DNA of 64,000 nucleotides from Sphingomonadaceae bacterium (GCA_027533105.1 JAPZTW010000008.1:472684-536683), one strand, 5' to 3'; shown: positions 44,288 through 54,877, numbered from the stretch's first letter. Notes: generated by a model not told the origin, from the letters alone. Numbers and translations: made by a program.

Positions 44288-44692
44288 TTAGTCCGCCGCC
44301 TCCTCCAGCGCCTCGATATCGGCATCGCTCAGGCCGAAATGGTGGCCAACCTCGTGGATCACCACGTGCGACACCAGGTGTTCCAGCGTCTCATCCCCGC
44401 GCGCGGCCCATTCATCGAGGATCGGCGCGCGAAACAGCCGGATCCGGTCGGGCAGTGCGCCGCTCGGCGCGGAGTGCTTGTCACCCACTGGTACACCCTC
44501 ATAGATCCCGGTCAGCTCGAACGGCTCGTCCAGCCCGACACTGGCCAGGGTCTCGGCATCGGCGAACTCCTCCACCTGCAGCACCACGCCTTCGAGGTGC
44601 GCGGCGAAGGGTTCGGGCAGGCTGGCCAGGGCCGCCAGGGCCAGGGCTTCAATCTCGGCTGCGGAGGGGGCAAGGCCAAAGGTGCGGGTCAT
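44288..44692 (-). CDS. Zincin-like metallopeptidase family protein
   Basis: LTGIYEG, IRLFRAPI, VVIHEVGHHFG. Confidence 0.88.
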   Translation of the reverse strand: MTRTFGLAPSAAEIEALALAALASLPEPFAAHLEGVVLQVEEFADAETLASVGLDEPFELTGIYEGVPVGDKHSAPSGALPDRIRLFRAPILDEWAARGDETLEHLVSHVVIHEVGHHFGLSDADIEALEEAAD

Positions 44693-44836
44693 GCCGGGAG
44701 AGATAGGCATTTGTCCCCGCACCGCCAATGCTTGCGCCCGCCGCCCACCGCCGCTAGGGCGCAGTCCATCCAGGCCGATTGAGTTGGTCGCCTGATTCAC
44801 GGCCCGCACTTCGTGCGATCCGATCAGGCTTAGTGC

Positions 44837-44927
44837 GGAGCGGTGGCCGAGTGGTCGAAGGCGCTCGCCTGGAAAGTGAGTATACGTCAAAAGCGTATCG
44901 AGGGTTCGAATCCCTCCCGCTCCGCCA
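44837..44927 (+). tRNA. tRNA-Ser(GGA)
   Basis: Acceptor GGAGCGG/CCGCTCC, anticodon loop CTGGAAA, long variable arm, GGTTCGAATCC T-arm, G discriminator, encoded CCA. Confidence 0.96.
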
Positions 44928-45302
44928 ATAGCCAATTGAAAATAAATAATAATCCTTTTTATGGGGCCCAAAATGGCGCAGTTCTGCGCCGTTTTCGCTT
45001 GTCGGACCGAACCTCTCAGACTGCCTAAGACATCCAAACCAGTCTCAGAACCTCGTTTGTCTCTTTTCGCCCGAACCTCGGTCCAAAAGGTACGATCGAA
45101 AAATACTGCATATTTCCAATGATATGAAGATGTGAACTGTCCGAACTGTTTGGGTAGATTTTCGCTGGGCGATTGGGCTTAAACCGGCGGTACGGCCTAC
45201 TTTAATCCGCCATGACGCGTAGCTGCCGCCAGGCTGGCATGAGCGGCAGTTCTAAGCGGAAGCCACCAGCAGGCTTTTAACCCGTCGGCGGCAGTCGCTT
45301 AC

Positions 45303-45578
45303 TTAGCCATTCAAGCGATCCTTCACCGCTTTGGCAGCAGCGAAGGTCAGTTTCTTCGAAGCCTTGATCTTGATCGTTTCGCCAGTTGACGGATTGCGGC
45401 CTTCCCGAGCTGGGCTCGCCTTAACCTTGAATTTGCCAAAGCCGTTGAGTGAGATCTCTTCACCCTTGGCGGCCGCGCGAGCGATGGCTTCGCAGATATC
45501 GCCAACCAGCTTGCGTGCGGCAACCTTCGTCAGGCTGTTGGCTTCAGCGATTGCGTCAGCGAGGTCATTATTGTTCAT
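45303..45578 (-). CDS. hup: HU family DNA-binding protein
   Basis: MNNNDLADAIA, GFGKF, REGRNPSTGETI. Confidence 0.93.
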   Translation of the reverse strand: MNNNDLADAIAEANSLTKVAARKLVGDICEAIARAAAKGEEISLNGFGKFKVKASPAREGRNPSTGETIKIKASKKLTFAAAKAVKDRLNG

Positions 45579-45825
45579 TTTGTCTCTCCACGTTTTTTAA
45601 TAAATTGAATGATCGCAGTTGATGTTTAAAATATATCGTGTCATTTCGCAATCTGGTTAAATCAAAATTTAATTAATTATAATATCACGGGGAAATAATA
45701 TGATTTAAAAATTTCTGTATGGATCACCACTACAGTGTTGGTGCTGTAAGTATTTATATCAAGTTCAAAAACGACAAAATTGTGAATGGTATGAGCGTTG
45801 GGTTCGAACAAGATTGATAACCCAG

Positions 45826-46278
45826 CTATTCAGCCGTGCCGTAATTCGCAATACGGGCGAATAGGTAACGATACATTTGTTCATCGCTTACAATGATCTC
45901 GGCTTTGGTCGTGCCGAGTGGGCCTGTCTGGATAATTTGGACGATTTTTGCGCGAACTTCACTTTGGTTGCCATCTGGCAGCACAAGAACATAGATCTTT
46001 AGGTCCTTATCTGAGCTTGCCCCTTTGTCGCCCGTCGCTCCTCTCCTCCCACTGATTTGCCCAGTCGCGCGGTCCACCACATCAAGACGGTACCCTGCCT
46101 CCTTAAACACGCTTGTCGTACGCTCAAAACTTTCTTCGATGCTAAATGGAACGCTGAAGCGCTTGTAGTTATCGTCGAGATTGAAGATTGCCCGATCGGG
46201 TTGCAGTGCGGCAGATCCAGCACACCCAAACAGTAAGAAGGAAACGCCTATTAATGCGATTAAATTGTTGTACTTCAT
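45826..46278 (-). CDS. Hypothetical lipoprotein (150 aa)
   Basis: MKYNNLIALIGVSFLLFG-C lipobox. Confidence 0.8.
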   Translation of the reverse strand: MKYNNLIALIGVSFLLFGCAGSAALQPDRAIFNLDDNYKRFSVPFSIEESFERTTSVFKEAGYRLDVVDRATGQISGRRGATGDKGASSDKDLKIYVLVLPDGNQSEVRAKIVQIIQTGPLGTTKAEIIVSDEQMYRYLFARIANYGTAE

Positions 46279-46305
46279 AGTTCAGCACTCTCAGCTTTGT
46301 ATAAA

Positions 46306-46791
46306 TTACACCTGACTCACTTTATTATTGTCGTTTTCATTCAAGATGTTGAATGGCTCTGAATCAAGTTCAACGAAATATTTGTATATAAACAACGATG
46401 AGACTGAAGTTAAAATTAAAAAAATAAGAGCCCAAGTAATTAAAAATATATAAATTAATTTATTTAATCTCGACAGTCCTTTTTGAATGAATGAAATGTC
46501 ATTTTTTTGACCGTGTAGCAGGGAAAATAACTGCCTGGCCAGTAACTCGTGATCGCGTTGAGTATCTTCTTTGTAGCATTCAATCGAAGAATTAAGTGAG
46601 TCAATGGCTCCAATTGCCACTTTTAAATCCTGAATTATTGCATCATTTTGCGAAATGATGGCCCCATTTGTGATAGTCAGGGACGGATCGCCGCCAGCCA
46701 TTGCTACAAACTCCTTGAGTTGCTCTATGCGCTTGTCCATCATTAGGGAATTCTCTTCGATATCAAAATCTAATTCTAATAAAATTGCCAA
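46306..46791 (-). CDS. Hypothetical protein with C-terminal TM helix
   Basis: Helical N-part plus LIYIFLITWALIFLILTSVSSLFIY; start may be ATG 46743. Confidence 0.65.
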   Translation of the reverse strand: MAILLELDFDIEENSLMMDKRIEQLKEFVAMAGGDPSLTITNGAIISQNDAIIQDLKVAIGAIDSLNSSIECYKEDTQRDHELLARQLFSLLHGQKNDISFIQKGLSRLNKLIYIFLITWALIFLILTSVSSLFIYKYFVELDSEPFNILNENDNNKVSQV

Positions 46792-46792
46792 G

Positions 46793-47596
46793 TTATAGGC
46801 AAGTTAATCTGTATTTTCCGTCTGGTCCTGTCTCGATAATGTAGTTTTGTTTAATCTTGCGCCTGATATGGTGTACGGCTACATGCAGAGCCTTCTTGCT
46901 CATCGGTTGACTGTGCATTGACCCTGCGACCTGTAGCGTCCTTGGCGTGATGAAATTATTCATTGAATTCCATAGCACTTTTAGTATTGCAAATTGCTGA
47001 TCAGTAACGTTATTTTCTAAGCAGGCGCGGATCTTCTGCTCTGTTAATAGCGCTAATTCTTTATTTTTGGCGTGTTTGTAATCAGCTTCTTGCCGCCAAT
47101 TAAGTCTACGATTCAAAGCGTTCAAGCGCGCTTCCGCCTCTTGCTTTGACATGCCCAAATGAAACACATCATCAGCACCAGAGTTTAGTAGATGGGCGGA
47201 ATTTCCAGGAACACAGCACGATACTACCGGTATCAGAATCTTGTTTGGAAGTGATTGCCTGATATCTCTAATAACTCGTAGAACTCGAGAGATGTCATCG
47301 CCACTGATGAGCATCATCTTAAAAGGCTTACTTGCCTGAGCGTAGTGGACTTCATTGCTTGATGAAATCTTATGGACCTGTGCTACGAGCAGGACTTGGT
47401 CCAGCCACATGCGTCGCGCAGCGCAGGTGCGATCCGGGAACTCAAGAAGGCGAATTATTGCTTTATAAGCCTTGCTGCGTTCCTCGAACGTAGATTTCTC
47501 CTCCGCGCCATTTTCATAAACAACTTGAGGATCAGAGTCGCCAAATCTGCTAAAATTAGTGCGAGCGATTTGTAGTTTGGCATAGGAGATCGGCAC
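46793..47596 (-). CDS. Atypical OmpR/PhoB-type regulator (pseudo-receiver plus winged helix)
   Basis: GADDVF...EAEARLNALNRR receiver end; VTDQQFAILKVL...LHVAVHHIRRKI wHTH; phospho-Asp and KP absent. Confidence 0.7.
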   Translation of the reverse strand: MPISYAKLQIARTNFSRFGDSDPQVVYENGAEEKSTFEERSKAYKAIIRLLEFPDRTCAARRMWLDQVLLVAQVHKISSSNEVHYAQASKPFKMMLISGDDISRVLRVIRDIRQSLPNKILIPVVSCCVPGNSAHLLNSGADDVFHLGMSKQEAEARLNALNRRLNWRQEADYKHAKNKELALLTEQKIRACLENNVTDQQFAILKVLWNSMNNFITPRTLQVAGSMHSQPMSKKALHVAVHHIRRKIKQNYIIETGPDGKYRLTCL

Positions 47597-47600
47597 CGCG

Positions 47601-48911
47601 TCAGCCCCTCCTCGCTTCGAGTGAGCGCAAGGTGTGCAGTGAACTTACTGTGTCAGCGATAACCCATTCTGAATGTCTGTTACTAGCTACTGGGTTTTCG
47701 GGCTCGCTTAACGATTGTTCTGTTATCACCATTGGACAGAAAGCGCTGGTCAACGCGACGAGTCCATCTTGAGCTTTGCGCCAATTGGCTTCGCTTTGAC
47801 TTCGACGGGTGAAAAGCTCCGAAATCTTAACGGCGTCAGGCAATAGGGTGTAAATTGTGGATAGATTGGATCCTTTTCCGCCAAAGTCGGCTATAACAAT
47901 CTTTACCCCCAGTGCCTTCAATATTTCGCACAAAGCAATTGCGCGTTGTAGTTGTTCGGTTTTAAGGGCTGCGGGGATCTCTATATAAAGCCGCGTCGCG
48001 AGCGCAGGGTCATTTTTCAATACTTCCGAATGCAACCCCCACCATACGTCTATCTGACAGCTGTTGGCCATCAAGGAGATGCCGAGTCTAAGATCCGGGT
48101 CATTCTTTAACTTAGCGAGCGCCCATTCAACGGTCTCGACATCGTATGCGCGGCCGACACCCATGCGCTCCAATGCTTCAAGCTCTGTGTCAATGGCTTG
48201 GTATCTGCCGCGATCACTAATCCTAAATCGTTTCGCACTTTGATAAAGGGTTTTATCAACAAGCTCTTTAGATACAATGCGACGGGCTCCCCAGACCAAA
48301 TTTTCCATCTGCAAGTCAGCCAGAAGTGCGGCGACATAAATGCTATCCAATTTGTATTGTTCAACCGTGACTTCAAACGCTTTAGCTGCAGCAGCAGAGC
48401 GATCATCCCATCGCGACTCACCAAGAGCGTGATCGACGGTAGAACTGTGGGAGTTTGACTCGGTGCTCTCAGCAATCTCTGTGTGTAATTCGGGTAATAC
48501 GCAAAACGCTCCTGAATCTAATGGTTGGAAAGATAAGCTAAGAAGTAATGGCTTGATAGTGTTGAGCACTTTCCAAAAGCTATCGCGTTGTGAAGTCCAC
48601 ACCGTCCAATGGCCAATCGCATCGCGCTCTATCCTAAGCTGACCACCTAGCTCGCGAACAAGACTTTCAAATTGATGAGCGACCGACTGCTCAATTTTGA
48701 AAGCGACATCACCTCCAAACGCGCATTTGATCCGATCTAAGTTACGCAATTCTATTGTAATTGCCTCGGCCCTCGAGTGCCCCGCATCATGTAACGTTTT
48801 TCCTGCTAACCACCGGCACTCTTCAATGATGTCCCCGCCGTTCAACGGTTGAGTTCTAAGGGGGAAACTTGGAGACGGCACAGTCAATTGCCCCGATGAA
48901 TGGCCTAGCAA
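47601..48911 (-). CDS. Degenerate GGDEF-EAL protein
   Basis: ITIELRNLDRIKCAFGGDV (GGDEF-fold start); LYIEIP, IADFGGKGSNL, PDAVKI, VITE (EAL-fold motifs). Confidence 0.75.
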   Translation of the reverse strand: MLGHSSGQLTVPSPSFPLRTQPLNGGDIIEECRWLAGKTLHDAGHSRAEAITIELRNLDRIKCAFGGDVAFKIEQSVAHQFESLVRELGGQLRIERDAIGHWTVWTSQRDSFWKVLNTIKPLLLSLSFQPLDSGAFCVLPELHTEIAESTESNSHSSTVDHALGESRWDDRSAAAAKAFEVTVEQYKLDSIYVAALLADLQMENLVWGARRIVSKELVDKTLYQSAKRFRISDRGRYQAIDTELEALERMGVGRAYDVETVEWALAKLKNDPDLRLGISLMANSCQIDVWWGLHSEVLKNDPALATRLYIEIPAALKTEQLQRAIALCEILKALGVKIVIADFGGKGSNLSTIYTLLPDAVKISELFTRRSQSEANWRKAQDGLVALTSAFCPMVITEQSLSEPENPVASNRHSEWVIADTVSSLHTLRSLEARRG

Positions 48912-49310
48912 TGATACCTTTTATATAATTTCGTATCATGAGGCAACAGCCCGCTCATTAGCCCCATCATGGATAAATTAACACTTTAATTCAATATTTT
49001 AATGGATCGATCGACTTCAGCTGATGTTGACCCTCCTTGAAGGGCAAAGGCATTTTTGCACACCACGCGGTTCTGCCGCCATTTCTAGCAAATCCAAGGC
49101 TGAAACGGTCTGCCATGCCGACTCAAGCCTTCTGCCCTTGGCTCTGAACGAGCCTGAACCCCAATTTACCTGAGCATGGACGACCGAGGCCGGTCAGATT
49201 GGAGCCAGTCGAGATCGAGCCGAGCCGCCACAAACCCCCAGCACCCGTCTCAGCTATCAGGCGCCGCCCGCAATGCGGCGGTGTTGGCTGCGTTGACCTC
49301 GCCAATCCGT

Positions 49311-49630
49311 AACAGGCGGCCTGAACGGGCTGGTCTCCAGGCGCCATTCCGGCTGCTTCGACCGCTCTGTCTCTGCCCGTTTCATAATCGGTGCGGTTTC
49401 ACTGTTTTTAGGGCGGAACAGGGAAAATCATCAATTTCGCACCCTAAACAGGCCTGATTGGGGCCTGAATCGGCATAGTGCAGCCGGCTGGGCGTGATAA
49501 AGTGCCCTAATTACGGTAGGTTAGATGGAGCAAAATTGCCCTTCCCTGTTATTCGCCGGAACAGGGTACTTTTTCGGCCGTAACAGGGGCTTTAATCGAC
49601 AGGAACAGGCTGTTTGATCGCCAAAACAGG
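49311..49630. repeat. Array of eight AACAGG hexamers
   Basis: Forward at 49311, 49417, 49447, 49560, 49582, 49604, 49625; reverse at 49545. Confidence 0.6.
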
Positions 49631-49631
49631 C

Positions 49632-49930
49632 TCATTCGCTCCAGCGCAAAGCGGGGCCTTGTTCGGCCCACGCAAGCGGGATTTCGCTGCGCACGAGGAA
49701 CTCGAGATTGACGTGGCAGGGTTGGGTTCCTGCGATGATCGCTTGTTGGAACCTGGGGGCGAGGAAGGCGAGGCGCAGCACGCGCCGGTCGTACCACGAG
49801 GTGGGTGCAGCGCCGACCGTGGGACCACCATCGGGCGCTTTCCCGAGCATGGCATGCGCGCGGCGCAGCGCGCTGACCAGGCTGGCATCGGGCTGCGGGG
49901 TCTTCAGTCCTGCAGTGATGGCGCGGGTCT
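49632..49930 (-). pseudogene. C-terminal fragment of a large serine recombinase
   Basis: PDASLVSALRRAHAM...RRVLRLAFLAPRFQQAIIAGTQP...PLAWAEQ; no catalytic N-terminus. Confidence 0.65.
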
Positions 49931-50376
49931 GCGTGTGGAACAAGAGCAATGCCGGGATGGGCTCGCTCTACCGCTCCAAGCACGAGATGGTGTTCGTCTA
50001 CAGGGTGCCCGGTGCCAGTCACTACAACGCGGTCGAACTTGGCAAGCATGGGCGCAACCGCACCAATGTCTGGGACTATGCTTCGGTCAACTCGATGCGT
50101 GGCAGCCGCCGCGAGGACCTGGCGCTCCATCCCACGGTCAAACCCGTGGCGATGGTGGCCGATGCGATCTGCGATGTCACCCGCCAGGGTGAGCTCGTCC
50201 TCGACATCTTCCTGGGATCCGGAACTAGCCTGATTGCAGCCGAGCGGGTGGGGCGCCGGTTCCGCGGGGTCGAGCTCGACCCGCTCTATGTCGATGTTGC
50301 GCTGGAGCGCTGGCGCAATCTGACGGGGCGCGAGCCTGAGCTGGTCTACCGCCAGGACGAGGAGCGCAAGGCTTGA
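49930..50376 (+). pseudogene. C-terminal fragment of an N6/N4 DNA methyltransferase (ParB-MTase type)
   Basis: CVWNKSNAGMGSLYRSKHE, HPTVKP, VLDIFLGSGTSLIAAE, GVELDPLY; DPPY-containing N-part absent. Confidence 0.85.
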
Positions 50377-50912
50377 GCCGCGGCGGCGACACCCGCTTCC
50401 GCAAGGGCCAGTCAGGCAACCCGGCCGGCCGGCCAAGGCAGCGGCGCCCGCATGTCTCCGCATTCGACATCATCTTTGACCAGACCCTGACCGTGACCCA
50501 GAACGGTATTGAGCGCGAACTGTCGGTCGACGAGGCGCTGCAACTGCAGACTTACCAGGCTGCTCTGAAGGGCAGCAAGCTTGCGATCCGCTCGGTGCTC
50601 AAGATGATCGAGAAGCGTGAGGTGGCGCTTGCCAAACTTGATCCCGCACCAATGAAACCAGTCCGGATGGTCCACGAGTACGACAGCGACAATGCCAATC
50701 GGGCCATGGAAATCCTGGGTATCGGCGCGCTTGGGGATGCCCCCCATGGTGGTGGTCCTGCAACCCGGCCGTTCCGGCTGGCCCGCTGGGCAACTCAAGC
50801 CGCGATCTCCCGTCCCGGCCGCAAGAGATTGACCGAGAAGCAGGTCGAAGAGGTGAAACGGCTTACACTTGAAGCCGAAAAGCTGCGCTGGCCAAGGAGA
50901 CGCGGAGAATGA
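50373..50912 (+). CDS. DUF5681 domain protein
   Basis: TRFRKGQSGNPAGRP; TTGA overlap with the MTase stop. Confidence 0.8.
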   Translation: MSRGGDTRFRKGQSGNPAGRPRQRRPHVSAFDIIFDQTLTVTQNGIERELSVDEALQLQTYQAALKGSKLAIRSVLKMIEKREVALAKLDPAPMKPVRMVHEYDSDNANRAMEILGIGALGDAPHGGGPATRPFRLARWATQAAISRPGRKRLTEKQVEEVKRLTLEAEKLRWPRRRGE

Positions 50913-51481
50913 CCGGGCACGAGGCCGACACAGAGCCTGCGGCGACCGGCTATCGCAGGCCGCCTGAGGCGACCCGATTCCGGAAAGGCCAGAGCGGCAA
51001 TCCGAAAGGCCGCCCGAGGAACCGCCGTAAGGAAATCCCATACGATACGGTGCTCGGGCAAATGGTAACGATCCGTGAGGAGGGCCGAGAGCGCCGCGTG
51101 ACCGCTGCCGAAGCGTTCCTGCTACACCTGACCCGCAAAGGGCTAGCCGGCGACAATGCCGCGGCGCGGGCTTCACTTGCGGCCATCGAAGCGGCGCGCG
51201 AGAAGCGCGGGGCTCCCGAGGCAAAACTGATCACCGAGATCCGCCTCGTCATGATGGGGTTCGGTGTAGGATCGGTGCTCGCACCGCTCGGTATCGGGCG
51301 CAAGCTGCACCCGCTCGACGAAGAGCGGGTACGCTGGCAGCTTCAACCGTGGATCGTCGAGGCAGCGCTCAAGCGGTTGGGGAACCGAAAGCTGTCCATC
51401 GATGAGCAACGAGACGTATGGGCCGTGACAAGGACACCTGAAACGGTGAACTGGCCAGAATGGTGGACCGAGCGAGCATAA
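50909..51481 (+). CDS. DUF5681 domain protein
   Basis: GYRRPPEATRFRKGQSGNPKGRP; ATGA overlap. Confidence 0.82.
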   Translation: MTGHEADTEPAATGYRRPPEATRFRKGQSGNPKGRPRNRRKEIPYDTVLGQMVTIREEGRERRVTAAEAFLLHLTRKGLAGDNAAARASLAAIEAAREKRGAPEAKLITEIRLVMMGFGVGSVLAPLGIGRKLHPLDEERVRWQLQPWIVEAALKRLGNRKLSIDEQRDVWAVTRTPETVNWPEWWTERA

Positions 51482-51545
51482 TGGCAGCTTTGTTGGACAT
51501 TCCGGAACGGCCGATCCTCAGCGCAGAACGCAGATAGCTGCCATT
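51480..51545. terminator. Inverted repeat between convergent DUF5681 and thiolase genes
   Basis: AATGGCAGCT (51480-51489) / AGCTGCCATT (51536-51545). Confidence 0.45.
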
Positions 51546-52782
51546 ACCGGCAAAGGACAGACACTACACAAACGGCTTCCTCGACGCCCCATAGCCCGCC
51601 GCCATTTTCGGCGACTGCCACTCTGGCGTTCTCTACCTGCCTCAGCCCGGCCTCACCGCGCAACTGTGTGACCAGTTCGAATATCTGGGCCAGTCCGGTC
51701 GCTCCGATCGGATGGCCCTTGCTTTCCAGGCCGCCGGAGGGGTTGACCGGGGTGCGGCCGCCAAGCGCGGTGTGTCCTTGTAGTGCGGCCAGTCCACCCT
51801 CTCCGCGCGACGCAAGGCCCAGGTTCTCGACCTGAATGACTTCGCCAACTGCGGTGGCATCGTGAACTTCGGCCAGATCGATGTCGTCAGGGCCGAGCGA
51901 AGCGGCCTCGAATGCCTTGAGCGCGGTGACCCGGCCGATGTGCCGCTCAAGATCGTCGGGGTCGCGGTCCACAGAGGTGCCAAGGACGCAAGCGCGCAGC
52001 TCCACCGCGCGAGCCGTGGCGCCGAGCCGACGCAAACCGGCTTCGGTGCATAGCACGGCTGCTGCTGCCCCGTCGCTGACCGGGGCGCACATCGGCAAGG
52101 TCAGCGGCCAGACGATTGAACGATCGGCCATGATCTCCTCGACCGAATAGGCTCGGCGATACTGCGCGCGTTCGTTGTGGACCGAATGGGCGTGGTTCTT
52201 GGCCGCGACGGCGGCGAACTGTTCCTGCGTCGAGCCGTAGAGCCGCATGTGCTGACGGGCGAAGGCGGCGTAGATGTCCATGAACACGCTGCGCCGTTCT
52301 GCCGGAGGGGGCAGCGCCGCGTCATCCATGCCGCCAAGAGCCAACAGCGCTTCGCGGCTTTGGTCCACCACGGCCACGTCCCAGCCGGCATCGAAAATGC
52401 CGAGCGAACGCGCCCGGTCGGGATGCGATAGCTTTTCCGCGCCAACCGCCAGCACGATATCGGCCGCGCCTGACTTCAGATAGTTCGCGGCTTCGTACAG
52501 CGCGGTCGATGCGCTGGCACAAGCGTTGTCCACATTGGCGATGGGAATACCCGCGAATCCAAGCGGCCGGAGCGCCACTTGCCCGCGGATCATGTGCTGG
52601 CCCTCCAGCGCACCCTGGCTGGTATTGGCAAACCACGCGGCCTCAATCTGCGAGGCCGCGCAATTCGCATCCGCCAGCGCATCGCCCACCGCCCGGCGCG
52701 TCAGGTCCTTGACCGAACGCGTCAGGTCGATCCCGAACGCCGTCATGCCGACGCCGGCGATATAGACCGCCTTGGCGGGCAT
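51544..52782 (-). CDS. Thiolase, SCP-x/lipid-transfer type
   Basis: NVDNACASAS, AEVHDAT, NPSGGLESKGHPIGATG. Confidence 0.92.
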   Translation of the reverse strand: MPAKAVYIAGVGMTAFGIDLTRSVKDLTRRAVGDALADANCAASQIEAAWFANTSQGALEGQHMIRGQVALRPLGFAGIPIANVDNACASASTALYEAANYLKSGAADIVLAVGAEKLSHPDRARSLGIFDAGWDVAVVDQSREALLALGGMDDAALPPPAERRSVFMDIYAAFARQHMRLYGSTQEQFAAVAAKNHAHSVHNERAQYRRAYSVEEIMADRSIVWPLTLPMCAPVSDGAAAAVLCTEAGLRRLGATARAVELRACVLGTSVDRDPDDLERHIGRVTALKAFEAASLGPDDIDLAEVHDATAVGEVIQVENLGLASRGEGGLAALQGHTALGGRTPVNPSGGLESKGHPIGATGLAQIFELVTQLRGEAGLRQVENARVAVAENGGGLWGVEEAVCVVSVLCR

Positions 52783-52785
52783 GGC

Positions 52786-53265
52786 TTAGAGGATCTGATC
52801 GAGGGCGTAGAACGGTGACCAGAGGTCCTCGATCGGCGTACGGTCGTGCACTAGCTTCTGCAGATTGAAGCCCGAAAAGACAGGATCGTTGGGCTTGCGG
52901 CCACCGCGGTGCGCGCGGTTGTTGTCGCTTGCAGGTGCGCCTTCGCCCATGAACGAGCGCATGTCCTTGGTCCGCAGCAACCGGTCCATATCATTGACAA
53001 TGGTCCGGCACAGGATCCGCCATTCACCGCCGCGTTTCTCGAAGATGTCGAGGTAGCGGCCCTGGTGCCAAAAATCGAGGAAGTCCCCGTCCGGCTTCTT
53101 CAGGCGGTGGACCACTGACCACTGGCTTTCGCAAAAGGCCCGGTCACCCTTGAGGTCGATGATCGTGTTGGTGATCGCGTGGATGCTTGAATCGACCTGC
53201 TTGAGAATGGGGATCACGTAATCGGCAAAGCCCTGGCCATCACCCCCATAGAAGCCGTGATCATC
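52786..53265 (-). pseudogene. 5'-truncated SnoaL/NTF2-like protein
   Basis: DDHGFYGGDG...SIHAITN...GRYLDIFEKRGGEWRI; N-terminal helices missing. Confidence 0.7.
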
Positions 53266-53974
53266 ATATGGCTCCGCCGCCATGCCGGAGCCCTTGTTGA
53301 GGGAGTTCATGGCAGCCCTCCCATCGGTCCGCATGCTCCAATCTTACGGTATGACCGAACTCTCGCCGGTGGTCACTATCCTGGGCTGGCGCGACCACTT
53401 GCCCGAAGCCGCAGCAAACGGCCGCCTGCGCTCAGCCGGTCGGCCAGCAATGCTGGCCGAGGTTGCGGTAGTCGGCCCCGAAGACAAGCCAGTGCCAGCA
53501 GGTTGCCACGGGGAGATCGTGGCGCGAGGGCCCATGGTCATGCAGGGCTACTGGAACCGGCCGGACCTTACAGCGGAAGTCCTGCGCGGTGGCTGGATGC
53601 ACACTGGTGACGTTGGCTACCTCGATGGAGATGGGTACCTTTTCGTCGTCGATCGCCTCAAAGATATGATTATCACCGGCGGGGAGAACGTCTGGTCCCA
53701 GGAGGTCGAGAACGCGCTCGCCTCGCATCCCGCCGTTTCCCTTTGCGCGGTTATCGGCAGGCCCGATCCCCTCTGGGGTGAAACAGTCCATGCAATCGTA
53801 AACTTGCGCGAAGGCGCCAGCACCAACGAAGCAGAATTGATCGCGCACTGCCGCAACCTGATCGCACACTACAAATGTCCGCGCAGCGTCGACATCCGGG
53901 CAACACCACTGCCGCTTAGCGGTGCCAACAAGGTCTTGAAGGCCGATCTGCGTGCCGAGTACTCCGGCCCGTGA
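53261..53974 (+). pseudogene. 3' fragment of a long-chain acyl-CoA ligase
   Basis: SYGSAAMP, QSYGMTE, GWMHTGDVG, VDRLKDMIITGGENV, NKVLK; AMP-binding P-loop half absent. Confidence 0.88.
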
Positions 53975-54036
53975 ATGGAAATGTGTCAACTAGTGCAGGC
54001 TGGTGGTCAACGCTCTGGCAAGAATGCTGCTGACTT

Positions 54037-54877
54037 GGGGCTGTCAGAGCAAATGCACCGCCTGATATGAGCTAAGTCGCAGGGTAGGGCCGGTCGATGC
54101 CTCGTCCCCGCAAACCTGCCAGCCCGTTCCGCTATTTCAACTCCTCGCCCGAGGTGATCCGCCTTGTGGTGATGATGTATGTCAGGTTTCCCCTGAGCTT
54201 GCGGAACGTCGAGGACCTGCTGTTTGAGCGCGGGATCGACATCTGCCATGAGACCGTGCGCATGTGGTGGAACCGGTTCGGCCCGCTGTTCGCTGGTGAC
54301 ATCCGTCGGCAGCGAGTGAGCCGGGTGCGCGGCTTCCGGCAGTGGCGCTGGCATCTTGACGAGATGTACGTGAAGCTTGGTGGCGAGATGGTTTACCTGT
54401 GGCGCGCGGTCGATCAGGAGGGCGAGATCCTGGAGAGTTTCGTGACGACGTCACGTGACAAGGCGGCTGCGTTGGCCTTCATGAAGAAGGCGCTAAAGCG
54501 TCATGGATCACCCGAGAGGATCACAACCGATGGCCTGCGCTCGTACAAGGCGGCGATGACTGAGCTTGGCAACGCGGACAAACAGGAGATCGGCCGCTGG
54601 GCCAATAATAGGGTCGAGAACAGCCACCTCTCGTTCCGACGACGTGAGCGAGCGATGCTCCGCTTCAGGCGGATGAAGTCGCTACAGAAGTTCGCCTCAG
54701 TCCACGCCAACGTGCACAATCACTTCAACCAGGAACGTCATCTCGTAGATCGACAGACTTACAAAGAACGCCGCTCGGTCGCTCTGGCCGAGTGGCAGAG
54801 CCTTATGGCCTGATCCCGCCTTCGCAAAGGCGGAGCTCCGCCAATCTGAGACTAATTGCGATTAGACTGACAGCACC
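54037..54877 (+). mobile_element. IS6-family insertion sequence
   Basis: Imperfect IRs GGGGCTGTCAG / GGTGCTGTCAG; no target duplication. Confidence 0.85.
54097..54813 (+). CDS. tnp: IS6-family transposase
   Basis: WHLDEMY, YLWRAVD, TTDGLRSY, NNRVENSH DDE motifs. Confidence 0.93.
   Translation: MPRPRKPASPFRYFNSSPEVIRLVVMMYVRFPLSLRNVEDLLFERGIDICHETVRMWWNRFGPLFAGDIRRQRVSRVRGFRQWRWHLDEMYVKLGGEMVYLWRAVDQEGEILESFVTTSRDKAAALAFMKKALKRHGSPERITTDGLRSYKAAMTELGNADKQEIGRWANNRVENSHLSFRRRERAMLRFRRMKSLQKFASVHANVHNHFNQERHLVDRQTYKERRSVALAEWQSLMA

Follow-up and report, generated by a model that had tools for sequence, protein, structure and literature searches.

A four-gene operon of a sphingomonad, with a degenerate EAL protein and a pseudo-receiver regulator, is probably the cargo of a mostly lost recombinase inversion switch

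Phase variation through DNA inversion has been studied in detail in enteric bacteria, Bacteroides and Clostridia. In Escherichia coli the short tyrosine recombinases FimB and FimE, approximately 200 aa in length and encoded outside fimS, invert this promoter-bearing element and phase-vary a surface structure. In the H segment of Salmonella, with its hix sites, both an outward promoter and the gene of the recombinase are located inside the invertible segment, and the recombinase, Hin, is a serine recombinase. It is also known that degenerate EAL proteins can act as anti-activators by direct contact, as in the pairs YdiV-FlhD4C2 and BluF-BluR. When the EAL motif of the trigger phosphodiesterase PdeR is mutated, the protein is blind to c-di-GMP and inhibits the transcription factor MlrA constitutively (PMC5052742). 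In Clostridioides difficile, CmrT, a pseudo-receiver regulator of the OmpR type, is the product of a phase-variable operon (PMC6837544), and the EAL gene pdcB encodes a phase-variable phosphodiesterase (PMC9286219).

The window analyzed here is a 64,000-nucleotide stretch of a Sphingomonadaceae genome (GCA_027533105.1 JAPZTW010000008.1:472684-536683). The locus of interest is a cassette of four intact ORFs on its minus strand (45826-48911), encoding, in operon order, a GGDEF-like and EAL two-domain protein, an orphan OmpR/PhoB-type regulator, a small membrane protein and a lipoprotein. ORF calls bore out the minus-strand, four-gene layout that a sequence-only reading of the window had described, with intergenic gaps of 4, 1 and 27 bp in the 5' to 3' direction of the operon. 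The 1-bp gap is a consequence of the TTG start chosen for the third gene; in near-identical metagenome contigs the callers pick an ATG at 46743 (145 aa), which leaves a gap of 49 bp. The cassette was also said to be of uniform foreign composition, of which the low GC content stood (41-50%, or 0.41-0.48 by per-kb composition, compared to about 65% in the surroundings) and the uniformity did not: the value falls to 0.26-0.37 in the gene of the membrane protein and rises to as much as 0.55 in that of the lipoprotein. No pseudogene signatures were detected: all four frames are open and, compared to the sister copy L018, 19 codon differences are synonymous and 11 non-synonymous. The cassette in the window contains no kinase or cyclase gene, as had been stated, and no cognate histidine kinase is found next to the regulator in any of the cassette versions examined (window, L016, L018-type and L028). 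The four genes should not be annotated as if they were a standard two-component system or a unit of c-di-GMP turnover.

Four metagenome contigs (L018-L021) carry the cassette at 98.7% identity, and in all of them a gene for a 216-aa tyrosine recombinase (PF00589) is situated approximately 380 bp upstream of the EAL gene. Two diverged cassettes, L016 and L028, each have a recombinase gene between two sites, and the recombinases of the three diverged cassettes are orthologous (49-54% identity). The intact segment is about 1.1 kb long, carries the 216-aa recombinase gene alone and is bordered by two inverted 27-bp core sites, composed of 10-bp arms of the TGTTAC type and a 7-bp spacer. Within each element the two spacers are exact reverse complements of one another (TATATAA/TTATATA, TAACCAA/TTGGTTA and TAGCCAG/CTGGCTA). 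Since the sites bracket the recombinase gene only and are inverted, inversion is indicated rather than excision. The recombinase and EAL genes are codirectional in L018 and L016 and oppositely directed in L028, and the same site-pair layout is present in about 24 of the 80 closest metagenome relatives. When L081 and L085 are compared with L091, the recombinase segment aligns forward and both flanks are swapped and reversed. L018-L021 are all in one and the same orientation state, and the flipped form was observed only among related elements.

A TTGCC sequence resembling a -35 element is conserved 8 nt inside one end of the segment and is directed outward. TTGNN at this offset (-8 from the site) is present at the recombinase-3' end in 18 of 23 elements, compared to 2 of 23 at the other end. 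Because the conserved -35 is accompanied by a TAnnnT element, formed by the crossover spacer and the outer arm, at one end, transcription would exit the segment from the recombinase-3' end only. With the promoter end toward the EAL gene the switch would be ON, and with the segment flipped it would be OFF. This split promoter was detected solely through comparison between elements, and a generic promoter and terminator scan of the region from 45.2 to 49.6 kb gave nothing better than shuffled sequences. We also considered a toggle between two flanking operons and rejected it; once the segment is flipped, the promoter is not consistently faced by any one gene, and for this reason a simple ON/OFF switch is preferred.

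The window retains only one end of such a segment. The operon-proximal recombination core site (48912..48938, minus strand) has the 10-7-10 arrangement of 27 bp and reads TGATACGAAA-TTATATA-AAAGGTATCA on the minus strand. The strict core-site motif has this single match in the 2.87-Mb genome, and the distal core site is missing from the window. The split outward promoter predicted from comparison of elements (48918..48946, minus strand) consists of a -35 TTGCCT (48946-48941), a spacer of 17 nt and a weak -10-like TAAAAG (48923-48918) that straddles the crossover spacer end and the outer arm. Upstream of the core site is a 287-bp stump of the invertible segment (48939..49225, minus strand), which homology to the intact copies identifies as having flanked the lost recombinase gene on its 3' side. 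Homology of the stump to L018-L021 (98.7% identity) stops at 49225, which is position 1343 of L018 and lies 66 bp past the recombinase stop, and the region with the -35 and the proximal site differs from the sister copy at 2 positions in 314 nt. At 49225 a deletion or replacement removed the recombinase gene and the distal site, and no recombinase ortholog was found in the window or the genome, where only distant recombinases are present (26-48% identity over partial lengths). With a single site and no cognate recombinase, the window holds a remnant of a switch and not a working switch. The upstream control element that the sequence-only reading overlooked is the predicted promoter-bearing stump of a recombinase inversion switch. 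The operon is still connected to the proximal site and the promoter end, which point in the ON orientation, and since the recombinase and the distal site are lost, the operon is most likely locked ON and unable to switch.

The sphingomonad switch is similar to fimS in its short tyrosine recombinases, although the recombinase genes are outside the segment in the case of fimS. It is similar to the Hin system in having the recombinase gene and the predicted promoter within the segment, although the recombinase class is different. Compared to both, its sites are of the 10-7-10 type with TGTTAC arms and its first downstream gene encodes an EAL protein, not a pilin or flagellin. The RecV-inverted cmr switch of C. 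difficile is likewise an invertible element in front of a signalling operon, cmrRST, which includes a regulator without the acceptor Asp (CmrT; PMC6837544). The cmrRST system is c-di-GMP-linked and governs surface behaviour, as may also apply to the operon in the window. However, RecV is encoded elsewhere and serves many switches, whereas here the recombinase gene is inside the invertible segment. Moreover, cmrRST has a kinase and a c-di-GMP riboswitch, while the cassette in the window has no kinase, a dead EAL protein and a lost recombinase, and the predicted promoter split across the crossover site is also a difference from the C. difficile systems. Literature searches found no published account of this switch family and no paper describing DNA-inversion phase variation in sphingomonads.

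Homologs of the GGDEF-like/EAL gene adjoin a switch site in at least 15 loci, and several of them are the first gene of an operon whose products are pili, a BapA-like adhesin, CsgG-type fibres or exopolysaccharide. Among the cargo of sister switches are SCPU pilins together with a PapD chaperone, an adhesin with a BapA prefix, CsgG accompanied by a Ser/Thr-rich secreted protein, and a sugar transferase paired with UDP-glucose dehydrogenase, which is in agreement with the role in surface behaviour previously suggested for the four genes. Part of the cassette recurs as a unit elsewhere: the EAL and regulator genes co-occur in four diverged lineages, in two of which a membrane protein of the same layout follows. 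The downstream cargo differs among these EAL-regulator lineages.

The EAL gene (47601..48911, minus strand; 436 aa) is annotated with a TTG start that adjoins the recombination site, and a GTG at 48881, which has GGGG 9 nt upstream and would give 426 aa, is probably the likelier start. Pfam, motifs and the structural model describe its product as a cytoplasmic protein of a GGDEF-like and an EAL domain, both with degenerate active sites. Residues 234-398 match PF00563 (54.6 bits, cut-off 31.3, E 1.3e-14), and within this match EALxR is replaced by SAKRF, the Asn by Ser, ExTE by EIPA, DDFG by ADFG and KxD by KIS; the EGVE position reads TEQS and the QG loop is missing. The only catalytic or metal residues that survive are the first Glu of ExxE, one Asp of DD, the Lys of KxD and the Glu aligned with EGVE. 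For the N-terminal part there is no GGDEF Pfam match at E<=1 and no GG(D/E)EF motif, and a stretch of the protein aligns to the GGDEF domain of PA0575 non-significantly (i-Evalue 42). In the model (overall pLDDT 56), residues 49-147 form a beta-alpha-alpha-beta-beta-alpha-beta core with pLDDT of 63-82, and the top Foldseek matches are tandem GGDEF-EAL chains (PA0575, LapD), aligned over 395-435 columns with high rmsd. The replaced motifs support the earlier description of a dead EAL domain and the predicted structure suggests a GGDEF-like N-terminal fold, and the protein is a member of the EAL family by fold and not an enzyme. The degenerate EAL receptors LapD and FimX are both among its structural neighbours in Foldseek. 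The protein does not conform to a LapD-type c-di-GMP receptor, which carries a transmembrane/periplasmic output domain and HAMP upstream of its degenerate GGDEF-EAL part: it has no TM or HAMP segment (the first 47 or so residues are modelled with pLDDT below 50) and scores 28.5 bits against the NCBIfam LapD model, the cut-off of which is 1020.

Decay of the EAL protein tracks its linkage to the regulator: in the L018-type cassettes and L016 it is fully degenerate and in L028 partly, and most EAL relatives without a regulator retain every catalytic motif. A word-index search for close homologs of the EAL protein or the regulator returned the cassette itself only, and a full HMMER scan was required to reach beyond it.

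The regulator gene (46793..47596, minus strand; 267 aa) was characterized by model and profile. Its product begins with an N-terminal part specific to the family, followed by a pseudo-receiver (residues 48-165), a long alpha5 helix (151-191) and a winged helix, and is modelled as a (beta-alpha)5 fold with wHTH at pLDDT 88. The acceptor position at the end of beta3 is Ser98 (MMLIS-GDD) and the conserved Lys is replaced by Leu147, and because both are changed the receiver is a pseudo-receiver. Together with the EAL motifs, this bears out the loss of catalytic or phospho-accepting residues that had been noticed in both signalling proteins. OmpR-family sequence models match only from the beta4 strand on; the family profile finds PmrA in the PDB (4.5e-18), from beta4 through the whole wHTH, and Pfam Trans_reg_C scores 21.1 bits, under its threshold of 26.2. 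Foldseek matches of the model are KdpE, CosR, DrrB, PmrA and HP1043, full-length in the case of KdpE, CosR and DrrB, and support a pseudo-receiver wHTH regulator without partner kinase, as previously proposed. HP1043 of Helicobacter and CosR of Campylobacter, both top structural matches, are like the regulator in receiver and winged helix. They are phosphorylation-independent and have no cognate kinase, and the same is suggested for the regulator in the window. Compared to them, its family has an N-terminus longer by approximately 45 residues, a conserved SGDD loop following beta3 and a very long alpha5. In the HMMER scan the family comprised 192 cluster representatives in 1.8 billion proteins. 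Most of its members elsewhere have no EAL neighbour, and it rides on acquired DNA, namely invertible-switch cassettes and ICE-like regions. A related-locus search with an alignment of six regulator sequences found a single genome locus, and tblastn against 72,556 plasmids found none carrying the regulator, so a plasmid origin of the cassette was rejected.

The third gene (46306..46791, minus strand) encodes a small single-pass membrane protein, translated as 161 aa from TTG or alternatively from the ATG at 46743. The N-terminal part is helical and cytoplasmic, and a single TM helix leads to a short acidic tail. A membrane protein of similar size and arrangement is present at the same position in L016; its similarity is non-significant (E 0.42) and homology of the two is unproven. 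The fourth gene (45826..46278, minus strand) encodes a 150-aa lipoprotein with an LFGC lipobox, which belongs to a conserved unnamed family with the motifs QPDR and DRATGQISGRRG. The family contains more than 145 clusters at 46-69% identity, and the copy in the window keeps all invariant residues. Relatives are stand-alone chromosomal genes, never situated beside EAL or regulator genes elsewhere, and the gene is present in a single copy in this genome and missing from 24 genomes of the same genus. The family profile had no match to solved structures or to Pfam and NCBIfam families.

Homology to other cassette copies ends at 49225 on one side and at 45754 or 45293 on the other, and a shared island with a pilin and two-component unit (57.4-59.8 kb), assumed by the sequence-only reading, was accordingly not confirmed. 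The region is mosaic accessory DNA with an IS6 transposase and gene fragments. A tRNA-Ser(GGA) gene (44837-44927) is 0.9 kb from the cassette, and a tRNA-linked island was rejected, as an integrase is lacking and the stretch from 44.7 to 51.6 kb contains no att-like direct repeats. A defence system was also rejected, as none of the four proteins had a PADLOC match. L018 shares the HU-gene flank of the window. Among the metagenome contigs a 4.5-kb unit at 99.9% identity is found with two left flanks, one in L018 and L020 and the other in L019 and L021, so the unit has moved or been rearranged. By eye, the left flank of L019 and L021 resembles the plug end of a TonB-dependent receptor; its 66-aa fragment has no Pfam match.

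We consider it probable that a recombinase inversion switch, mostly lost here, once had the four genes as its cargo, and that the regulator is tuned by contact with the dead EAL protein. The sequence-only reading was of a phosphorylation-independent relay from envelope to DNA, in which envelope sensing falls to the lipoprotein and the membrane protein, c-di-GMP is read by the EAL protein and contact controls the winged-helix factor. A dead EAL protein beside a pseudo-receiver in the absence of a kinase, the tight gene spacing, the order of EAL, regulator and small membrane protein repeated in L016, and the resemblance to the degenerate receptors LapD and FimX are all in accordance with it. Binding of c-di-GMP by the EAL protein is doubtful, however, because the Arg of EALxR, the Asn, one Asp of DDFG, the Asp of KxD and the QG loop are gone, and residues contacting the nucleotide and metals are mostly replaced. 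The envelope-sensing part is not supported either, with a lipoprotein family that is otherwise stand-alone and unlinked to signalling genes, membrane proteins without significant similarity between the window and L016, and downstream cargo that varies between lineages. We therefore regard the relay as unlikely.

Distinctly unlikely, in our view, is a silent and decaying remnant, whose AT-rich genes would be unexpressed after the loss of the recombinase and promoter region and en route to pseudogenes. Such an end would suit foreign DNA left in a mosaic region without its recombinase and distal site, and as AT-rich acquired DNA the cassette may be silenced by a xenogeneic silencer. It is harder to reconcile with four intact frames that differ from the sister copy preferentially at synonymous sites, with an untouched -35 and proximal site, and with a lipoprotein that has kept every invariant residue of its family. 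The paired 27-bp sites could also be read as operators of a dimeric repressor, or as attachment sites of a small integrative element whose recombinase serves mobility only. This is suggested by the palindromic outer half-sites and by the two left flanks of the 4.5-kb unit, but we find it very improbable, since related elements carry the segment flipped between the same flanks and the spacers vary between elements, yet are exact reverse complements within each. Reverse-complement spacers are needed by recombination partners and not by operators, and operators were ruled out for this reason.

As cargo of a locked switch, the operon would be transcribed constitutively from the predicted split promoter. 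The orphan pseudo-receiver regulator would act without phosphorylation, and the dead GGDEF-like/EAL protein, encoded 4 bp upstream, would probably tune it through direct contact, as a c-di-GMP-blind partner or inhibitor similar to the EAL-motif mutant of PdeR. What suggests this contact is the conserved adjacency and tight spacing of the two genes; in PdeR-MlrA, YdiV and BluF systems an EAL protein is likewise in control of a transcription factor by contact. The partner would here be an OmpR-type pseudo-receiver, as opposed to a MerR-type factor or FlhDC, and the N-terminal domain of the EAL protein is GGDEF-like, as opposed to BLUF or PAS. The membrane protein and the lipoprotein would be co-expressed envelope components, and the net effect would likely be altered surface or biofilm behaviour, as for the cargo of sister switches.

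More tentatively, these elements may represent an undescribed and widespread phase-variation system of Sphingomonadales, in which a self-inverting cassette with a crossover-split promoter places a GGDEF-like/EAL gene at the head of surface operons. In the regulator branch the EAL protein would have turned into a c-di-GMP-blind partner and one flip would switch a regulon, in a phasevarion-like manner, with the window as a natural locked-ON mutant. The compact switch of a recombinase gene, two 10-7-10 sites and a predicted split promoter is tied to EAL-led operons for pili, adhesin, curli-like fibres and exopolysaccharide, and one branch shows EAL degeneration beside an orphan pseudo-receiver regulator. 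This provides a testable case of how a c-di-GMP enzyme may become a pure protein-contact regulator, for which the genome of the window, as a probable natural locked variant, is a convenient genetic starting point.

The four minus-strand genes at 45826-48911 lie head to tail with gaps of 4, 1 (or 49) and 27 bp and encode an EAL protein (47601-48911, 436 aa), an OmpR-type regulator (46793-47596, 267 aa), a membrane protein (46306-46791, 161 aa with a TTG start or 145 aa with the ATG at 46743) and a lipoprotein (45826-46278, 150 aa). GC content per kb drops from about 0.65 in the surroundings to 0.41-0.48 in the cassette, where it ranges from 0.26 to 0.55 at fine scale, which confirms the four-gene AT-rich operon noticed in the sequence-only reading. 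Our main result concerns the context of this cassette, which is probably what remains, in a locked state, of a recombinase switch that inverts itself. The source genome (2.87 Mb, the window being on its contig 8) was grouped by genome search in the same genus as Novosphingobium hassiacum.

Four near-identical metagenome contigs (L018-L021) contain the cassette at 98.7% identity, the match reaching from window position 49225 to either 45754 or 45293. All four also have a gene for a 216-aa tyrosine recombinase (PF00589) on the upstream side of the EAL gene, about 380 bp from it. There is no trace of the recombinase gene in the window and no ortholog in the source genome. L018 and the window have a common HU flank, which indicates that L018 represents this locus as it stands in a close relative still carrying the recombinase. 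The L018 recombinase gene is flanked by two 27-bp sites, TGTTACAAAA-TATATAA-TATCGTAACA and TGATACGAAA-TTATATA-AAAGGTATCA, the second of which terminates exactly at the annotated EAL start, and two diverged cassettes, L016 and L028, have 10-7-10 sites at the same places. The 7-bp spacers vary among elements (TAACCAA, TAGCCAG), while paired spacers within each element are, in every element, exact reverse complements, the pattern of tyrosine-recombinase partner sites in inverted orientation. We also considered the sites as operators and rejected this reading, since reverse-complement spacers within an element are not expected of operators.

Scanning metagenomes with the recombinase alignment gave at least 557 relatives, 80 of which were fetched; about 24 of these, those above approximately 46% identity, carry paired sites of this kind. 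In L018 and L016 the recombinase and EAL genes are co-directional, and in L028 they run in opposite directions. In alignments of related elements the recombinase segment matches in the forward direction, but its flanks have traded places and are reversed: the flank of L081 past the site downstream of the recombinase gene is the reversed flank of L091 past its upstream site, and the adhesin flank of L085 is the far flank of L091, reversed. These swapped and reversed flanks are comparative evidence suggesting that the segment inverts.

Both segment ends of 23 elements were then read outward and compared for promoters. TTGCC-like -35 hexamers at offset -8 from the site are present at the recombinase 3' end in 18 of the 23 and at the other end in two, and the TAnnnT lying 17 nt beyond the -35 consists of the final two crossover-spacer bases and the outer arm, so that the predicted promoter is split across the recombination site. 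The predicted promoter would fire outward at one segment end only. At least 15 loci have a GGDEF-like/EAL homolog that starts directly at a site. The recombinase gene is directed away from the EAL gene in 14 element types, in which the promoter therefore faces away from it, and no consistent gene faces the promoter in the flipped-state loci checked; three other types, namely L091, L016 and the window type, have the promoter directed at the EAL gene. We read this as an ON/OFF switch that is OFF in most assemblies. Cargo behind the EAL gene in sister loci comprises SCPU pilins with a PapD-type chaperone, a giant adhesin with a BapA prefix, a CsgG-family protein with a secreted Ser/Thr-rich protein, and a sugar transferase with a UDP-glucose dehydrogenase. 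A further member of the switch family (L086, 5756-10561) is ON toward a 246-aa ORF whose C-terminus matches the winged-helix region of the regulator profile (E 2e-8), followed by a DUF4402 protein and two large ORFs without family assignment; the EAL gene is absent, so the switch family is not restricted to EAL genes.

The window keeps the proximal core site (48912-48938) and 287 bp of the invertible segment in the ON orientation, with a predicted -35 TTGCCT at 48946-48941 and a predicted -10-like TAAAAG at 48923-48918. Site and segment differ from L018 at two of 314 nt. Homology to the intact copies stops at 49225, 66 bp past the expected recombinase stop codon, and beyond it lies unrelated accessory DNA, sporadic among relatives. 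With one site and no recombinase the window switch cannot turn, and the operon is most likely locked ON. All four frames are intact, with 19 synonymous and 11 non-synonymous codon differences from L018 (dN/dS roughly 0.2, on small numbers). Since the predicted transcription start falls approximately at the annotated TTG, the GTG at 48881 is the likelier start codon of the EAL gene.

The EAL domain match of the 436-aa protein is significant in Pfam. Aligned with 15 relatives that retain canonical motifs, it shows EALxR changed to SAKRF, Asn to Ser, ExTE to EIPA, DDFG to ADFG and KxD to KIS, and the QG loop is missing. Its N-terminal half has zero matches in the Pfam search; the predicted structure of this half has a beta-alpha-alpha-beta-beta-alpha-beta core, and the top structural matches of the whole model, over approximately 400 columns, are the tandem GGDEF-EAL proteins PA0575, LapD, PA0861, DosP and MorA (pLDDT 56, moderate). 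In the regulator model (pLDDT 88, high) the receiver is a full (beta-alpha)5 fold (48-165), and a long alpha5 helix (151-191) and a winged helix are also present. The model matches full-length KdpE, CosR, DrrB, PmrA and HP1043, the last an atypical orphan regulator; sequence likeness to OmpR-family proteins is confined to beta4 onward. The acceptor position is occupied by Ser98 (MMLIS-GDD) and Leu147 replaces the conserved Lys. The phosphorylation-independent envelope-to-DNA relay proposed from the sequence is partly supported. A pseudo-receiver regulator without a kinase agrees with the model and these residues, and "dead GGDEF-EAL" is right for the EAL half, given the motif losses, and probable for the GGDEF half, given the moderate-confidence fold. 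That the EAL protein reads c-di-GMP is doubtful, as it has lost the Arg of EALxR together with most of the other contacts.

The EAL and regulator genes occur together in L018-L021, L016, L028 and N. hassiacum. L016 has the same gene order (recombinase, EAL, regulator, 161-aa membrane protein), its EAL being 30% identical, its regulator 38% and its recombinase 54%; in L028, from a Sphingomonadaceae MAG, recombinase, EAL and regulator are followed by a secreted Ser/Thr-rich protein. The N. hassiacum locus (L011, G018:C21, 3-5529) is without a recombinase and encodes an EAL protein with every catalytic motif intact, the regulator, a Ser/Thr/Asn-rich 191-aa protein with a signal-peptide-like N-terminus (the same secreted protein as in L028), a 476-aa CsgG-family lipoprotein and a last Ser/Thr-rich ORF, also with a signal-peptide-like N-terminus. 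The arrangement resembles a secretion locus for curli-like fibres under control of the EAL-regulator pair. The same cargo is found in L096 behind an intact switch, there without the regulator.

The regulator family is distinct, with 192 cluster representatives among 1.8 billion proteins and full-length members in eight of 401 Sphingomonadaceae genomes; further homologs are solitary or within ICE-like regions. In L059 (G209:C13) and L025 regulator-family genes lie, without an EAL gene, with a DUF7007 gene on one side and a gene for a large AAA_34-type helicase on the other (Pfam check for L025 only), which is an ICE- or plasmid-like context; nearby ORFs in L059 resemble a ParB-type protein and ArdC by eye, and the L025 locus continues with a 515-aa integrase. 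Genome G389 has two tandem copies on a small contig (L061, G389:C100:2880-4668), one with an in-frame TGA, and a third on a separate contig. The third protein of the window operon begins with a helical N-terminal part and ends in a short acidic tail, with a single hydrophobic helix between them. The lipoprotein belongs to a large, well conserved, nameless family (over 145 clusters, 46-69% identical, in which the motifs QPDR and DRATGQISG are invariant), whose homologs elsewhere are solitary genes amid unrelated chromosomal genes. The window gene is single-copy in the source genome, and the 24 same-genus genomes searched lack it. It has the appearance of a gene ordinary in other sphingomonads that was captured here.

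Immediately downstream of the cassette, past a 247-bp spacer of about 28-38% GC (45579-45825), is a minus-strand gene for an HU-type DNA-binding protein (45303-45578; PF00216, 8.5e-29; about 55% GC), and in L018 the same gene follows the cassette. The source genome has three further HU/IHF-like genes, the nearest 50% identical in product. This HU-type gene may be part of the acquired DNA and a potential binder of the AT-rich islet. Also near the cassette is tRNA-Ser(GGA) (44837-44927, plus strand), overlapped by a 249-aa minus-strand ORF (44288-45037); its Zincin_1 match covers the C-terminal 100 residues only, so the true gene is far shorter and the ORF an ORF-listing artefact. On the other side, 49226-54813 is a mosaic accessory stretch with a 304-aa ORF without family, two neighbouring DUF5681 genes (50373-51481), a truncated AMP-binding enzyme fragment (53282-53974) and an IS6/IS240-type transposase (54097-54813); portions of 49230-50470 are sporadic in relatives and occur once more in the source genome (contig 4). 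In L019 the 4.5-kb unit, 99.9% identical, has a second genomic context, which indicates that the islet recently moved or was rearranged; an IS3-family transposase gene follows directly (L019, 4544-5263), and the left flank in L019 and L021 resembles, on reading, the plug end of a gene for a TonB-dependent receptor.

The window genes for the dead EAL protein and the kinase-less pseudo-receiver are 4 bp apart, those called in L016 overlap by one boundary base (L016:2597), and this adjacency is conserved across 30-38% identity. Most switch-linked EALs without the regulator retain every catalytic motif, while degeneration, partial or complete, affects three of the four that are linked to the regulator. 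The EAL protein would have passed from an enzyme to a protein-contact partner of the regulator. YdiV with FlhDC and BluF with BluR are precedents for EAL proteins partnering transcription factors. In the PdeR/MlrA pair, mutation of the PdeR EAL motif gives a c-di-GMP-blind constitutive inhibitor (PMC5052742). No description of such a self-inverting recombinase switch was found in the literature searched. The nearest overall analogue is the cmr switch of C. difficile, which makes an operon for the OmpR-type pseudo-receiver regulator CmrT phase-variable and governs colony morphology as well as motility (PMC6837544); in that species pdcB is a phase-variable EAL gene (PMC9286219). The system represents known kinds of regulation, namely invertible promoter switches, degenerate EAL partners of transcription factors and orphan pseudo-receiver regulators.
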